A DNA stretch of 16,660 bases from Leptospiraceae bacterium. Lineage in GTDB: Bacteria > Spirochaetota > Leptospiria > Leptospirales > Leptospiraceae. Below the pieces are notes generated by a model. It did not search any database, was not told the origin of the DNA, and saw only the letters and a program-made list of their open reading frames with translations. The stretch is taken from the NCBI GenBank assembly GCA_016711485.1, contig JADJSX010000013.1, positions 214,889 to 231,548 of the forward strand, given 5' to 3'. The first letter of the stretch is position 1; the number at the start of each line of letters is the position of its first letter. Positions 368 through 9,574 of this stretch are shown piece after piece. The translations under genes were made by a program, and so were the position numbers.

Positions 368-1191
368 GGAATCCCAAACATGTCCATTACCTTTTATAAA
401 ACTCACGAAAAACAACTTGAGAAAATTCTACAAGACTATAAAAAGAAAATTTCCAAATCGGATAACGAACTATTTACCGATCCATCCATTTCTCATTTTA
501 AAAGATTTGAAACTGAATTATTTAAACACAAACTTCGCCCTTACCAAATGGAAGCGCTGTATATTCTAGATGCTCTCTACACTCAAAGTAAATCCGATAA
601 GGATATAAAGAAACTCTATGAAAAACTTTTAGAGTCACACGGAAAAGAAAATCCAGTTAAGATTCCTTTTATTGGCTATGAAATGGCAACCGGATCAGGC
701 AAGACAACGCTAATGGGGGCATGTATCTGTTATCTGCTAGAGCAAGGAATTAAAAACTTTCTAATCATTACACCAAAGTCCTTGGACATATACAATAAAA
801 CAATTCGCAATTTCACAAAAGGGGGAGCTGATTCTATTTGGGATAGAGAAGCGCCTGTTAAGTTTAATCTAATAACAGGAGATGATTACAACCATTTACA
901 ATTTAATTCTGATAAGGACTTTAATTTATTTATTTTCAACATTGACAAATTCGGTCCCAATGCAAACAAAACATCGAAAGAGTGGGAGAGTTCTTACTTC
1001 AAAGATAAGAACGGAAATACGATCAGCGTAAAAGAATTTTTAGAAAATGAAGACCTTGCTATTATAACGGATGAAGCTCATCACTCACAAAGTCAGAGTG
1101 CTGGTGGTTCGGGAAATATTAGAGTTGTTGCAAAATTAGAAATATCCTAAAAAAAGCTTGTACAAAAACAATCGAGTTATTTATTTTCTGT

Positions 1192-1563
1192 ATGAAGAAT
1201 ATAGAAAAGATATTAAAAAAGAAACGACTTTGTCAGGCATTGACAGGAGTATCGCCTGAAAAAATTTATGAAAGTCTTCCCTATTTTGAAATTGAATTAG
1301 AAAAACATGACAAGAAAGAAAAGAAATCATCGAAAGGAAGAAAAACTGAACTAACAAATTCGTTAGAGAAATTATTTTTCATTCTATACTATGTAAAATG
1401 CTATCCCACATTCGATGAAGCAGGCTTTTTCTTTGGCGTCGATAAAGGAACAGCAAATCGGTGGGTTCATAAGTATTCGAAAATACTAGAGTCTACTTTA
1501 AAAACAATGATGCTATTACCCGCACGAAAGCCTAAAAAGATTACTGATAAATTGAAAAGATGA
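1192..1563 (+). CDS. IS transposase OrfA (N-terminal HTH part of a DDE_Tnp_4 transposase).
   Basis: 123-aa ORF. The motif ...LFFILYYVKCYPTFDEAGFFFGVDKGTANRWVHKY... is typical of the N-terminal region of IS5/Harbinger-type transposases. It ends at a TGA overlapping the -1-frame start of the catalytic part. Confidence 0.7.
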   Translation: MKNIEKILKKKRLCQALTGVSPEKIYESLPYFEIELEKHDKKEKKSSKGRKTELTNSLEKLFFILYYVKCYPTFDEAGFFFGVDKGTANRWVHKYSKILESTLKTMMLLPARKPKKITDKLKR

Positions 1564-2195
1564 AAGAAAATAATGAAGAAATTTTTATTGATGGAACTGA
1601 AAGACCCAGAAGAAGACCGAAAAATAAGGATATTCAAAAAGAAAACTATTCAGGAAAAAAGAAACGGCATACAGTTAAAAATTTAGTTATTACAAATCGA
1701 AAAAAAGAAATCTTATATACCCTTCGCCAAAAGTAATTTCCCTTTTTGTAAAAAATAGGGTATTCCCAAACGCCAAAAATAAGACTCTTTTAAAAACGAA
1801 TGGGTAATTACTTTTGGCGTTTGGTATATTTATCTAACACAGTGCAAGGCTCAATGCATGATTTCGTATTGATGAAAGAAACACTAGTCAAAAATTATCT
1901 TCCGTCCGAAATGAAAGTTTATGTCGATACTGGATTTCTAGGCTTCCAAAAACTAAGTCCTGATCTAAATATCTTTATGCCTAAAAAGAAACCTAAATCT
2001 AGAACTCTTTTTCAATACGAAAAAAAACAGAATAGAAAGATTTCAAAACTTAGAATTCTCGTTGAACATGCAATAGGCGGCATAAAGAGACTTCGCGGAG
2101 TCACTGATGTATTTAGAAACATCAAAAAAGGATTTTCAGATTTAATCATGAATATATGCTGCGGATTATGGAATTTAAACTTGAAAAAATTTTAG
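1560..2195 (+). pseudogene. IS transposase OrfB (DDE catalytic domain, -1 frame relative to OrfA), disrupted by a MITE insertion that introduces a stop at 1735-1737.
   Basis: Frame 1560+3k reads MKENNEEIFIDGTERPRRRPKNKDIQKENYSGKKKRHTVKNLVITNRKKEILYT, then a stop inside the inserted element. The same frame resumes as VYLSNTVQGSMHDFVLMKETL...YVDTGF...ILVEHAIGGIKRLRGVTDVFRN, giving the DDE triad (D in IDGTE, D in YVDTGF, E in VEHAIGGIK) and the family signature SGKKKRHT. Confidence 0.7.
1717..1828. mobile_element. MITE-like ~110-bp non-autonomous element (copy A) nested inside the IS transposase gene.
   Basis: Imperfect ~26-bp terminal inverted repeats: left 1715-1740 TATACCCTTCGCCAAAAGTAATTTCC, and the reverse complement of the right end 1803-1829 ATATACCAAACGCCAAAAGTAATTACC. 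An internal third copy of the repeat core (1761-1785 TATTCCCAAACGCCAAAAATAAG) forms a perfect 13-bp hairpin with the right end. It is flanked by a TA/TAT duplication (TATATA / TATAT). Removing 111 bp restores an uninterrupted transposase (…EILY-LSNTVQGSMHDF…) that matches DDE_Tnp_4 spacing. Confidence 0.6.
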
Positions 2196-4711
2196 ACTAA
2201 CATAAAATCGAATTTTGCAACAACTCTATTATAAAAAACTTTCATCCCAAAGTAGTATTGGAATTTACCGCAACTGCTTTAGAAGATACAAAGTCAGACG
2301 AGAAACGTGCTCAAAAGGTCGTTTATAAGTATGATATCAGAAAATTCTTAGAACAAAAATATGGAAAACGAATAAAAGCAGTTGCACTGGATACCGAATC
2401 CATTAAACGAACAAAGAAAACGGAAATTCCTGACTCAGAAAAATGGAAGCTAATTACATTATACCTCTTTCATATTCTAAAAAAGAAAGCCTTACTTTTA
2501 TCAGAGAGCACAAAAAATTTAAAACCATTGGCTCTAATCAAAGTAAAAGATGATTCGATTTATGCAAAAAAAATCTATGACTATATTATAAATGAACTCC
2601 CAAATGATGAATCCAATATAAAAATCATATTAGAGAAAATTAAGACAGAAGAAATAGATGTTGTTCCTACTCTTAAAGCTGTTCTAGAAGATTTATTTCA
2701 ATTCGATCTAACCAAAATTAAAAAAGAATTAGAACGATTGATTGTGGCAAAAACTTTACTTTATTCAGGAGATTTGGACAAAGAACAAAAAGAGGGATTC
2801 CTAAAAATCCAAACTAACTTATACGAAAGCATTGTTTTTATTAAACGTCTAGACGAAGGAATTGATTTACCGAATATTTACACCATTGCTGTTATCAACG
2901 ACAATGAATCAGACTTTAAAACTTCGGTTAAGCAGATTATTGGTCGCGGCGTTCGACTGCCAAAGTTAACAAGAGAATATGATGAGGAACACGATTTATT
3001 ACAAGCTCAATCAGAAATTCTACATATAATATGCGATAGAGGCAAGAATTTTGAAAAAATCATCGAGGACATTAAGGCTGAATTTGATTTGAATGAATTT
3101 TTATTTTCTAACAATTCTAAGCATAAAGTCACAATAACCAACATTGTAAAAAAACATTTACTGAAAGATAAAAAAATTCCAATCATTAAAGCATCTGATA
3201 AAATAAAGAAAGATGTAACATTAGACGGACTCATGTCAGATACGGATGCAATCGTGAACTCATATATTCAACATAATTGCACGCCAAATCCTGATAAGTC
3301 GAGAGTTTACTTAAAATTTGCCCCTACTTCTTTTTTCACAATTATAGATATTTTCTCTGATGATTTCACTTTCTTAAAGGCAATGGAAGAAAAAGGAATA
3401 CCGTCCGAAAAATTTCAAATCAATGAGGATGATTATAAGGAGATTTATACAAGGATTGTAAAAAAAGTTCCTCATATACCAGATAGTGCGAAATACAAAG
3501 ATTATTTTAAAAAATACATTGATCATCTAGTTCAAAAAGATTTTTATTTTTTTAAATCAGACGACGCGGATAAAGAAATTGCTAAAAGGAAATTCAAAGA
3601 TTCATTTTGTTATTTTTTTGATAACTATATTCACAAACATTATTACCAACCAGATTATAAACAAATTCATGAAGACCAATATTTAGAATTGGAAGATATT
3701 TTTAAAGATGTAGAAATTTCTATTCAGCAAGATGCGATAGGATCTAAACAAAAGAAAAAATTAGAAACCTTAGTTCATGATTTTGCAAAAATGGCAGAAC
3801 TAGTCAAACAAGGTCATTATTTTAATGGATATAAATACTCTTTATATGATTACACAAGATTTGATTCTTATACAGAAAAACAATTAGCGGATTACTTGGA
3901 GGAACTGATTGGAAAATTAGAAAATCCAGAACAATATTTTTGGGTAAAAAGTGAACGGCAGTTTAGTTTTCAATATGGTAACCAAAGATACTTTCCGGAT
4001 TTTTTATTTCATTATTCTGATATGATGAATATTATCGAGACGAAAGCAGAGCCGTTTTCAAATCAAAAGAAAAATGCACTGTTAGAAAAAGTAAATGAAA
4101 TAGATGGGTATCGCGGAATTTTAATTTACTCTGATAAAATGGATGATATCCAAAAACAAAATAATGATGTTCCTTTTGAAGATTTACTTGGAGTTTCGAA
4201 GCAGTCATTCAAATATGAAAAATATAAAAATCATCTTATCTATAGTATAGAAGAGAATTTAAAGTTCACTGAATTTTTACCTTTCTATTCCGTGAAAGCA
4301 GCCGCAGGTGCGTTTAGTGAATCGCAAGAAGCTAATCCTGAAGGATGGCTTCCAGTAAAAAAAGGCAAATATTCCAAAACATCTTTTGTGATTCAGGTCA
4401 AAGGTCATTCAATGAGTCCAAACATTTTCGATGGAGATCTTTGTATTTTTGACAATCATTTCGTTGGTTCAAAAAATGAAAAAACCGTATTGGTGCAACA
4501 TAGAGACATTTTTGATCCAGATAACGGAGGAAAATATACCGTTAAGCGTTACTACAGTAAGAAAATTCAATCAGAAGAAGAATTGATTGGAAACTATAGA
4601 ATAGAATTAAAACCAACTAATTCTAATTACAAATCTATTATTCTTGAAAAAGCATTAGAGGCTGAAATTAAATTTATAGGAGTCTTTGTAGATACAGTAG
4701 CATTACCTCAA

Positions 4712-4737
4712 GCCGAATAAAGATTCGGCATTTTTTT
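4712..4737 (+). terminator. Rho-independent terminator of the helicase-nuclease-peptidase gene.
   Basis: Stem GCCGAAT (4712-4718), loop AAAG, stem ATTCGGC (4723-4729), followed by a T7 run (4731-4737). The stop codon TAA lies inside the stem-loop. Confidence 0.55.
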
Positions 4738-4841: not shown

Positions 4842-5933
4842 ATGAACTCCAAACCCACCGGCATCTCTACTCCAACATACAACTCCATCCTAAAAGACAT
4901 CTCCCTCATTTACGAAAACGCACAAAGTGAAGGTGATGGAAATTGGAACAAAACAAATCTATTCGCTCACTGGAAAATCGGAGAAAGGATAATCGAAGTC
5001 GAACAAGGGCAAAAAGAAAGAGCGGCTTACGGGGATATGGTGCTAAAGCAACTTTCAAAAGATTTGAACAGAAAGTTTGGAAAAGGATTTTCAGATAGAA
5101 ACTTGCGGTATATGAGAAAGTTCTATCAGACCTACAAAATGAAAGAAGTGCAATCAGTTCTATCGTGGAGTCATTATCGGGAATTGTTACTTGTGGATGA
5201 TTCTTCGGTGAGAATAAAGCTAGAAAACCAAGCGATTCGGGAACGGTGGTCACAACTAGAATTACAAAAACGGGTTAAATTAGCTATAGCCGGTAAAGGC
5301 GAAAAAACAGAGTCAGAAAAGCAAGATGAGCCAATAAAAGACAGTTTGAAACGACCATTGATGAGGCTCTATTTATACCGCACTTTACGAAAATTTTCGT
5401 CAGATTTGGAACAGTCTGTTCCAAATCTGGATCTAGGTTTTTCGATTCGTTTAAAGGTTAATAGATATTATGCGTTTTTATCTTCAAATGGGAGTGATTT
5501 GAATAAACTCAAAGTCGGTTCGGTGATTGAGTCACGGAAGAAAGGTAATTCGTATTATTTTGAGTCTATTTCTAGCAGCAAAGAGATGTTTACCTACAAA
5601 GCTTATTTGGAGAGAGTTATTGACGGAGATACTTTGCTTGTTACTATTGATTTGGGTTTTTCGGTTTTCATTGAGCAAAGGTTGCGGCTGCGTGGATTAA
5701 ACGCTCCTGAGCTTGGGACAAGTAAAGGTAACGCGACGAAGAAATTTGTAGAGTCTCGTTTAATGGATTGTGATTTTTTGATTATTAAAACTCACGGAGC
5801 TGACAAATACGATCGTTATTTGGTGGATGTATTTTATTTGGGGGGTGTGGATAATGAGGATAAGGTTTTACGAGATGGGACTTTTTTGAATAATGAGTTG
5901 TTGGAAGAAGGATTGGTTGGCTTTGTGACCTAA
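4842..5933 (+). CDS. Fusion protein: a DUF1016_N (YhcG-like N-terminal) domain joined to a staphylococcal-nuclease (SNase/thermonuclease)-like domain.
   Basis: N-terminal region ...ERAAYGDMVLKQLSKDLNRKFGKGFSDRNLRYMRKFYQTY... matches the DUF1016 N-terminal consensus. C-terminal region ~5617-5930, VIDGDTLLV...RLRLRGLNAPELGT...KYDRYLVDVFYLGG, matches SNase motifs (V.DGDT, RL.GIDAPE, D.YGR). Confidence 0.75.
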   Translation: MNSKPTGISTPTYNSILKDISLIYENAQSEGDGNWNKTNLFAHWKIGERIIEVEQGQKERAAYGDMVLKQLSKDLNRKFGKGFSDRNLRYMRKFYQTYKMKEVQSVLSWSHYRELLLVDDSSVRIKLENQAIRERWSQLELQKRVKLAIAGKGEKTESEKQDEPIKDSLKRPLMRLYLYRTLRKFSSDLEQSVPNLDLGFSIRLKVNRYYAFLSSNGSDLNKLKVGSVIESRKKGNSYYFESISSSKEMFTYKAYLERVIDGDTLLVTIDLGFSVFIEQRLRLRGLNAPELGTSKGNATKKFVESRLMDCDFLIIKTHGADKYDRYLVDVFYLGGVDNEDKVLRDGTFLNNELLEEGLVGFVT

Positions 5934-9464: not shown

Positions 9465-9574
9465 TATACCCAACGTCAAAAGAATTTTCCTTTTATTAAA
9501 AGATGGATATTCCCAATTGCCGAATAAAAGGTTCATTTAAAATGAATAGGTAATTACTTTTGGCAATTGGTATA
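9465..9574. mobile_element. Second, diverged copy (copy B) of the MITE-like element, in the divergent intergenic region between the STAS genes and the kinase gene.
   Basis: The ~110-bp sequence aligns along its full length with 1717-1828 at roughly 75% identity. It has the same three-repeat architecture: left terminal repeat TATACCCAACGTCAAAAGAATTTTCC, an internal copy ATTCCCAATTGCCGAATAAAAGG, and a right terminal repeat GGTAATTACTTTTGGCAATTGGTATA. It is flanked by TA. Confidence 0.6.

Follow-up and report, generated by a model that had tools for sequence, protein, structure and literature searches.

A TA-flanked miniature inverted-repeat element inside an insertion sequence inside a helicase gene of an uncultured Leptospiraceae bacterium

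How does a transposase gene come to lie in pieces within another gene that itself lies in pieces? The question is raised by a 16,660-nucleotide stretch of DNA (the window; G+C content, 31.6%) from a metagenome-assembled Leptospiraceae bacterium, a genome bin of an uncultured organism. Five proteins of the window agree exactly with entries of the series MBK8395927-MBK8395933. Near the start of the window, a gene encoding a ResIII helicase with a C-terminal S24 peptidase is interrupted by an IS5-like insertion sequence (IS), and the transposase gene of that IS is interrupted in turn by a 111-bp segment. The answer favored here, with high confidence, is a nested series of insertions: the IS into the helicase gene, and then a miniature inverted-repeat transposable element (MITE) into the IS, the MITE being one of a family nearly all of whose members are flanked by TA. 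The order of events is read from the nesting itself. A sequence-only reading of the same DNA had already proposed a MITE in an IS in a gene, and the proposal holds, in that IS copies free of the MITE and 1076-amino-acid (aa) homologues of the helicase free of the IS are both found.

Repair of the transposase gene

The transposase frames on either side of the segment, 1560+3k and 1800+3k, are in the same phase, as had been claimed, and read-through from the first of them stops at a TAA (1734-1736) that the element contributes, one of its three stops in the transposase frame. What happens when the segment is taken out? Deletion of 111 bp yields ...NRKKEILYLSNTVQGSMHDF... for every start from 1714 to 1719. 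When the deletion is combined with fusion of the two upstream frames, the product is a 297-aa protein that covers the DDE_Tnp_4 profile from position 1 to position 158 of 158 (E 1.2e-26), which bears out the expectation that removal of the segment would fit the spacing of this domain. A database search with the repaired transposase returned P0001, also 297 aa and 97% identical over its full length, together with hundreds of relatives of about 300 aa, all of them single open reading frames (ORFs). The protein alignment is free of gaps where ...NRKKEILY meets LSNTVQGSMHDF..., that is, at the join of KKEILY and LSNTVQG.

The comparison is sharper at the DNA level. Three intact copies of the IS (L001-L003) are 97.3% identical to the window IS and differ from it by exactly two indels, the 111 bp and one A. 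The repaired IS (minus 111 bp, with the one A restored) is 100.000% identical over 995 bp to the copies in L093, L094, and L095, and the repaired 297-aa transposase matches P0285, found on four contigs of a public collection, letter for letter. Because of these exact matches, it can be said that the exact progenitor of the window IS copy exists without the segment. Every one of these six copies lacks the 111 bp, the outcome that the sequence-only reading had foreseen for other copies of the IS. Could the 111 bp instead be an intrinsic or variant segment of the IS lineage, such as an indel or an internal repeat? Its length is a multiple of 3, it lies within a gene, and two other contigs have the same IS variant. 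The intact progenitor, however, is identical at all the other 995 positions and has no such segment, the segment also occurs by itself at many loci outside the IS, where its ends and TA flanks are the same, and it brings stop codons with it. An intrinsic origin is extremely improbable.

The proposed course of events is one of two insertions. A 995-bp IS5-like IS would have inserted in the ResIII-helicase/S24-peptidase gene, duplicating TATTA. The 109-bp MITE would then have inserted at a TA within TTATAT of the IS transposase gene, duplicating TA and landing past the first catalytic Asp but ahead of the HD motif. In its present orientation and frame the MITE is noncoding, and its three stops keep this IS copy from making transposase while leaving the IS ends intact. 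Is the IS dead because of the MITE, as had been concluded? Perhaps not because of it alone. The stops do end the transposase frame, but the MITE is not the sole lesion, since a 1-nt deletion upstream (a run of four A residues, A4, where intact IS copies have A5) also shifts the frame and separates the HTH part of the transposase from the DDE part. This deletion was absent from the earlier account. It may reflect not decay but a sequencing error in the homopolymer; other IS copies in the same bin (MBK8399487 and MBK8399488) are also broken in A runs.

What are the limits of the inserted element? The sequence-only reading described about 110 bp with terminal inverted repeats (TIRs) of about 26 bp and TA-rich flanks, which agrees well with an element of 109 bp, TIRs of about 25 nt, and a TA duplication. 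Its placement at 1717-1828 was right to within 1 to 2 nt, the best placement being that given in Table 1. The ends match at 21 of 25 terminal nucleotides, and somewhat wider arms (1715-1745 and 1799-1829; 31 nt) are 84% complementary. The chance expectation of the left arm in the window is 0.00. As single-stranded DNA, the stretch 1716-1828 folds at -22.1 kcal/mol, versus a mean of -9.4 for shuffled sequences (z = -5.0), and none of 200 shuffles was as stable. Stops occur in four of the six frames, and the longest open frame is the element's own span. A hairpin of this strength, with two opposite-strand frames open, might suggest a functional RNA (intron-like, a regulatory hairpin, or a small RNA) that is removed or tolerated, so that the IS is still active. 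Against this, no promoter-like or terminator-like site was found inside the element, and Rfam gave only subthreshold matches to generic microRNA hairpin models (24-26 bits versus gathering scores of 83-107). Three stops lie in frame in the present orientation, and dispersal with TA duplications is a signature of DNA transposition. A functional RNA is highly unlikely here.

The source being a genome bin, an artifact must also be weighed, either a chimeric join within the repeated IS of a metagenome-assembled genome or a sequencing error. Short-read contigs of the IS do have mixed flanks, and the A4/A5 difference could be a homopolymer error. Both MITE-IS junctions nevertheless recur in two independent short-read assemblies from other samples (L090, 1-680; L091, 1-590), with slightly different MITE alleles, and the TA duplication at a TA site is clean and the inverted repeats are complete. 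The chance that the arrangement is an artifact is very slight. In L090 and L091, which trace to ERZ27239170 and ERZ28574392, the right half of the IS is identical to that of the window. About 8 changes set the MITE allele of L091 apart, and they cluster in the inner loop. The right flanks differ. These flanks could be taken to mean that the IS::MITE composite has moved to new sites, an idea that is largely rejected, as L094, whose IS is intact, shares the right flank of L091. Contigs of the L090, L091, and L094 type are of low coverage, come from short reads, and run through a half of the IS in which the copies do not differ (100% identity); the right flanks of L090 and L091 are probably assembly chimeras. 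In L095, from a wastewater metagenome (285-1313), the left helicase flank of the window (30 of 30 nt) is joined to an intact IS that is free of both the MITE and the frameshift, and its last four bases are TAAT versus TATT in the window. This contig may represent the pre-MITE allele of the window locus, or it may be a repeat-collapsed contig.

A dispersed MITE family and its target

Is the element found elsewhere? The sequence-only reading implied that it should be, and further copies were found: a second one in the window, near-identical ones in two of three other Leptospiraceae bins, and sister subfamilies. A scan of prokaryotes with the arm core CGCCAAAAGTAATTWCCC, taking one genome per species, returned 13 loci in the three other bins (JAGOHK01, DDBL01, and JANMOF01), 8 in Candidatus Uabimicrobium (described below), and scattered singles at the number expected by chance. 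Full-length copies in L028, L023, and L013 are 99%, 96%, and 91% identical to the window MITE and have unrelated flanks. Sister elements of about 105-120 bp (L004, L009, L015, L018, L036, L040, L053, L054, and the metagenome contig L077) differ in their interiors and left arms and have the same right arm, GGGTAATTACTTTTGGCGTTTGG followed by TATA. A family profile made with nhmmer from four copies (window 1716-1828, L028, L023, and L013) picked out the second, diverged member in the window (Table 1). It is about 78% similar, lies between STAS-domain genes and a response-regulator/HATPase gene, and occupies the same place in an independent assembly, L086. In all, the window has 2 members, the three other bins have 3 near-identical ones and at least 11 sister copies, and a metagenome contig has 1. 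Three members, the 99% copy included, fall within about 400 bp of L028 (3170-3546). Such clustering suggests that the place is a local hot spot or that TA-rich sites beside earlier insertions are preferred.

The arm shared by the family is TA-CCAAACGCCAAAAGTAATTACCC or a variant of it. A metagenome scan with WWCGCCAAAAGTAATTWCCC gave 23 matches, of which only L077 is related; a viral scan gave 2, both unrelated; and blastn against plasmids and phages gave nothing relevant. A literature search for the arm sequence brought up two unrelated papers only. This MITE family of uncultured Leptospiraceae is new in the sense of being previously undescribed, with an arm sequence that was not found in the literature. 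It is a family of activated-sludge Leptospiraceae and could serve as a strain marker.

What does the MITE duplicate when it inserts? The empty site in the intact IS copies is TCTTATATTTATC (in context, ...AAATCTTATATTTATC...), and the filled site is longer by 111 bp (109 bp plus TA), reading ...AAATCTTATA-TACCC...(105 bp)...TTGGTA-TATTTATC.... With a TA repeat as the target, a shift of 111 bp can be placed in several registers. The symmetric register, in which TA is duplicated and the element ends are TA...TA, fits 14 of 15 complete copies, in line with the TA target-site duplication that had been anticipated; the exception is L015, with AA on the left. A 5'-truncated copy, L052, has TG on the right. 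Beyond the TATA-...-TATA ends, the sequences of family members are unrelated. Duplications of 3, 4, or 5 bp were rejected, each failing in several copies, and a 4-bp TATA duplication would in addition need a 109-bp shift, which would break the progenitor transposase frame. No second filled/empty pair was derivable from syntenic loci, L004 and L009 having only 2.5 kb in common. These comparisons establish that the segment was inserted, where its boundaries lie, that it belongs to a family, and that TA flanks it.

Candidate mobilizers and known relatives

What moved this family? Elements of the IS630/ISY100 and Tc1/mariner groups insert into TA and duplicate it; with ISY100 in vitro, the flanking TAs were target duplications and inverted repeats of about 24 bp sufficed (PMC2170065). 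By a modest margin over even chances, the mobilizer of the family would be an IS630/Tc1-mariner superfamily transposase whose gene lies elsewhere in the genome and which acts in trans, by cut and paste. This putative enzyme would recognize the conserved arm and insert the element at TA. Because no autonomous element was found in the loci screened, the TA duplication and the arm architecture are the whole basis of this assignment. The host IS, to judge by sequence, is not the mobilizer, because its ends are unrelated to those of the MITE and its flanking repeat is 5 bp, not 2.

Might a transposase outside the IS630/Tc1-mariner superfamily be responsible, such as one of the IS5 family acting at TA-containing targets or one of an undescribed family? 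No IS630-type partner was found, and the IS5-like host IS always has TA beside its ends, which means that the genome has at least one non-IS630 transposase favoring TA-ending sites. The MITE and IS ends also have a loose motif in common, [GC]CAAAA[TG]TA, 8 to 9 nt from the tip. Yet the IS has TATTA, a 5-bp repeat, on its flanks both here and in L096, and the MITE has a 2-bp TA; apart from the loose motif, the inverted repeats of the one are unrelated to those of the other, and an exact TA duplication is a hallmark of IS630/Tc1-mariner elements (PMC2170065). A mobilizer of this other kind is a doubtful, though serious, candidate.

The autonomous partner was sought in several ways. (i) Pairs of arms 0.4-3.5 kb apart across all loci gave three matches, and neither of the two examined is a candidate: the pair in L029 encloses an ordinary 454-aa gene, and that in L047 belongs to a Spirosoma IS5-like element whose last codons (...YRQK and stop) happen to spell the arm pattern and whose ends differ. 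(ii) An all-against-all comparison of ORFs across the loci showed no repeated transposase. (iii) Among the ORFs that are repeated or lie next to a MITE, Pfam recognized adenylate cyclases, ABC-F, DUF1564, and Bro-N. (iv) A Leptospira plasmid with a 21-nt match was read over the first 50 kb of its 65-kb record and shows no IS630 there.

Several points weigh against the nested insertions and the IS630/Tc1-mariner mobilizer as set out here. The IS has a frameshift as well, so the MITE was maybe not the first or only inactivating lesion. For the source genome, the copy count covers about 24 kb, with 2 copies in it. There is a single filled/empty pair and its target is a TA repeat, so that the register of the duplication comes from comparison of copies rather than directly. 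An autonomous element with the MITE ends was not found in about 170 kb of related loci, and no transposase appeared among the repeated or MITE-adjacent ORFs screened at the 13 Leptospiraceae and 8 Uabimicrobium loci, a screen that did not take in every ORF.

How does the MITE compare with known elements? Bacterial MITEs are typically 100-200 bp long and A+T-rich, with TIRs, TA termini, and target duplications (PMC2229807), and the Leptospirales rank with the orders richest in MITEs (median, 154 per genome; PMC11602168). The RUP element of pneumococcus is 107 bp, has a TA target, is ascribed to IS630-Spn1, and inactivates IS transposase genes by insertion; insertion into transposase genes has likewise been noted for the MITEs of Neisseria (PMC2229807). 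The present MITE is like RUP in length (109 versus 107 bp), TIRs, TA target, A+T richness, lack of coding capacity, and multiple copies. It is unlike RUP in coming from another phylum, and whereas RUP has a partner IS with matching ends, none was found here; the two are likened by description, not by sequence. The Correia/NEMIS elements of Neisseria are similar in size (about 107-155 bp), in their inverted repeats of about 24-26 bp, in their TA termini and duplication, and in having subfamilies that differ internally (PMC2229807). Their sequence and host are different, however, and Correia elements have IHF-binding and promoter motifs, while the present element has no promoter-like site. The MITE is also like the eukaryotic Stowaway and Made1 elements, which are mobilized by mariner-like transposases (e.g., Hsmar1), in its TA duplication and in being a short, hairpin-forming element. 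The nested arrangement and this kind of element are thus already known, and what is novel is the particular family; knowledge of how such elements work is unchanged by the finding. The locus does add a clean case of an IS knocked out by a MITE, one for which the sequence of the exact progenitor is known. The same pattern is on record for RUP and Correia elements, and a role in keeping the transposase load down has been suggested for it.

One resemblance to Hsmar1 is more specific. Both MITE arms (1728-1738 and 1806-1816) contain CAAAAGTAATT, 10 nt from the TA-flanked tip, and this 11-mer recurs 11 nt from the tip of the inverted repeat of human Hsmar1, TTAGGTTGGTGCAAAAGTAATTGCGGTT (PMC9062482). 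The identity is confined to an A/T-rich spacer, the flanking bases that are specifically read by SETMAR (GGTGC and GCGG) differ, and the host is bacterial. No homology is claimed, and the match may be coincidence or convergence. A weak Rfam match of the MITE to mir-548 (24.6 bits versus a gathering score of 90) probably reflects the likeness of CAAAAGTAATT to the Hsmar1 arm. mir-548 derives from Made1.

A second resemblance crosses phyla. The planctomycete Candidatus Uabimicrobium sp. HlEnr_7 (NZ_CP165719.1) has a different TA-flanked MITE family of about 160 bp, with ends of TA followed by AGTGACCCGCCAAAAGTAATTACCCAT, found by the arm-core scan at L020, L027, L029, L030, L031, L037, L042, and L055. 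An arm core of 18-20 nt, CGCCAAAAGTAATTACCC, which contains CAAAAGTAATT and lies exactly 7 nt inside the duplicated TA, is common to the Leptospiraceae and Uabimicrobium families. This core and the Hsmar1 11-mer would fit an IS630/Tc1-mariner mobilizer, without proving one. A more far-reaching suggestion, offered as speculation and rather unlikely, is that the two families mark an undescribed, cross-phylum lineage of mariner-like (IS630-superfamily) bacterial transposases with conserved DNA-binding specificity and horizontal spread. A weaker addition to it is that the dead IS::MITE composite might still be moved in trans.

The insertion sequence, the helicase gene, and their surroundings

Table 1. 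Positions of the nested elements, their repeats, and the gene fragments in the window
Feature	Position	Strand	Basis
MITE, 109 bp, 34% G+C, three stops in transposase frame	1718..1826	+	inverted repeats, alignment, family copies
MITE left TIR, TACCCTTCGCCAAAAGTAATTTCCC	1718..1742	+	repeat search
MITE internal third, degenerate arm copy, CCAAACGCCAAAAATAA	1766..1782	+	direct to left arm, inverted to right arm
MITE right TIR, GGGTAATTACTTTTGGCGTTTGGTA, arm conserved across all subfamilies	1802..1826	+	repeat search, family copies
TA target-site duplication of MITE, left copy	1716..1717	.	filled versus empty site, family comparison
TA target-site duplication of MITE, right copy	1827..1828	.	filled versus empty site, family comparison
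Second, diverged MITE member, 106 bp, intergenic, TA at 9465-9466 and 9573-9574	9467..9572	+	nhmmer E 3.9e-15
IS5-like IS	1122..2226	+	inverted repeat, Pfam, NCBIfam IS5_4 (below cutoff), alignment to intact copies
IS left TIR, GAGTTGTTGCAAAATT	1122..1137	+	inverted-repeat search
IS right TIR, AATTTTGCAACAACTC	2211..2226	+	inverted-repeat search
TATTA direct repeat, left copy (probable IS target-site duplication here)	1117..1121	.	sequence; host-gene repair
TATTA direct repeat, right copy	2227..2231	.	sequence; L083 empty DNA
N-terminal transposase fragment (HTH_Tnp_4), ended by frameshift	1192..1563	+	ORFs, Pfam
A4 run versus A5 in intact IS copies (1-nt deletion, frameshift)	1555..1558	+	alignment
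Middle transposase fragment, first catalytic Asp region (FIDGTE) and KKKRHT	1560..1717	+	read-through enters MITE, stops at TAA 1734-1736
C-terminal transposase fragment, HD and E motifs, in phase with 1560+3k	1829..2195	+	ORFs, alignment
Host gene 5' part (ResIII helicase with C-terminal S24 peptidase)	380..1121	+	ORF list, Pfam, collinearity with intact homologues
Host gene 3' part (helicase C-terminal half and S24 peptidase)	2232..4720	+	repaired protein, Pfam, homologues

The IS measures 1105 bp in the window and 995 bp in its native state, and a wider inverted-repeat pair (1116-1140 and 2208-2232) marks its ends. Intact copies encode a single 297-aa transposase of HTH_Tnp_4 plus DDE_Tnp_4, and the repaired window transposase matches both domains (PF13613, E 7.9e-10; PF13359, E 1.2e-26). 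Judged by its predicted protein, the IS is a distant member of the IS5 family. It is like that family in its pair of domains, its length of about 1 kb, its 16-nt inverted repeats with a GAG start, and its short, A/T-rich target duplication, and unlike it in scoring 76.2 bits with NCBIfam IS5_4 (NF033581), short of the cutoff of 140. A 660-bp ENA contig, P0282, holds a fragment of the IS whose agreement with the IS breaks off shortly before KKEILY, a few codons short of the MITE site; this divergence may be a truncation or another insertion at an A-run/TA-rich spot.

What did the IS itself duplicate? TATTA stands on both sides of the IS in the window and also in L096, and a 5-bp TATTA target duplication at the host gene would be the parsimonious reading. 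For this copy a duplication of TA alone does not hold, as those 2 bp would leave an extra codon (GNIIIKNF) without counterpart in the intact homologues. In other short-read contigs of the IS, only the TA adjoining each end is common and the flanks are mismatched, which is attributed to repeat-collapsed assembly.

The outermost level is the host gene. Its 5' open frame extends into the IS and stops at 1150. Excision of the IS and one TATTA (1110 bp) joins 380-1121 to 2232-4720 and gives a 1076-aa protein with a ResIII domain (PF04851; E 7.6e-20) and an S24 peptidase at its C terminus. Intact homologues of exactly 1076 aa are collinear with it and without gaps (P0284, 93% identity; P0149, 79%), and the repaired junction, ...AGGSGNIIKNFHPK..., is conserved in them; the 1110-bp removal gives back ...GGSGNIIKNF..., the same as in P0149 and P0284. 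The uninterrupted homologous DNA of L083 is GGAAATATTATCAAAAAC. The gene as a whole (380-4720) is a widely conserved fusion of about 1070 aa in which a ResIII helicase is followed by a C-terminal, LexA-like S24 peptidase.

Is it a defense gene, as the sequence-only reading had it? The label is plausible but unproven. The ResIII domain speaks for it, as does a methyltransferase near the homologous locus, while PADLOC matches to the helicase are negligible (E 7e-4 and 1.5e-3). In the homologous locus L083 (1-9231), the genes upstream of the helicase encode UvrD/PDDEXK, an N6_N4 methyltransferase (N6_N4_Mtase, three genes upstream), an HTH/M78 protein, and a 185-aa protein; the window begins too late for that region. 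Downstream of the host gene, the window has a DUF1016 plus SNase nuclease gene at 4842-5933, which matches the PADLOC candidate system PDC-S02. By gene content, the region looks like an uncharacterized restriction-like island.

How has the locus been annotated? GenBank splits it into three proteins: a 256-aa helicase (MBK8395924; 380-1150), a 131-aa protein annotated as "transposase" (MBK8395925; 1800-2195), and an 820-aa hypothetical protein (MBK8395926; 2258-4720). All three are fragments, made by the nested insertions, of one 1076-aa gene product and one 297-aa transposase, and the ATG assigned to MBK8395925, at 1800, falls within the MITE.

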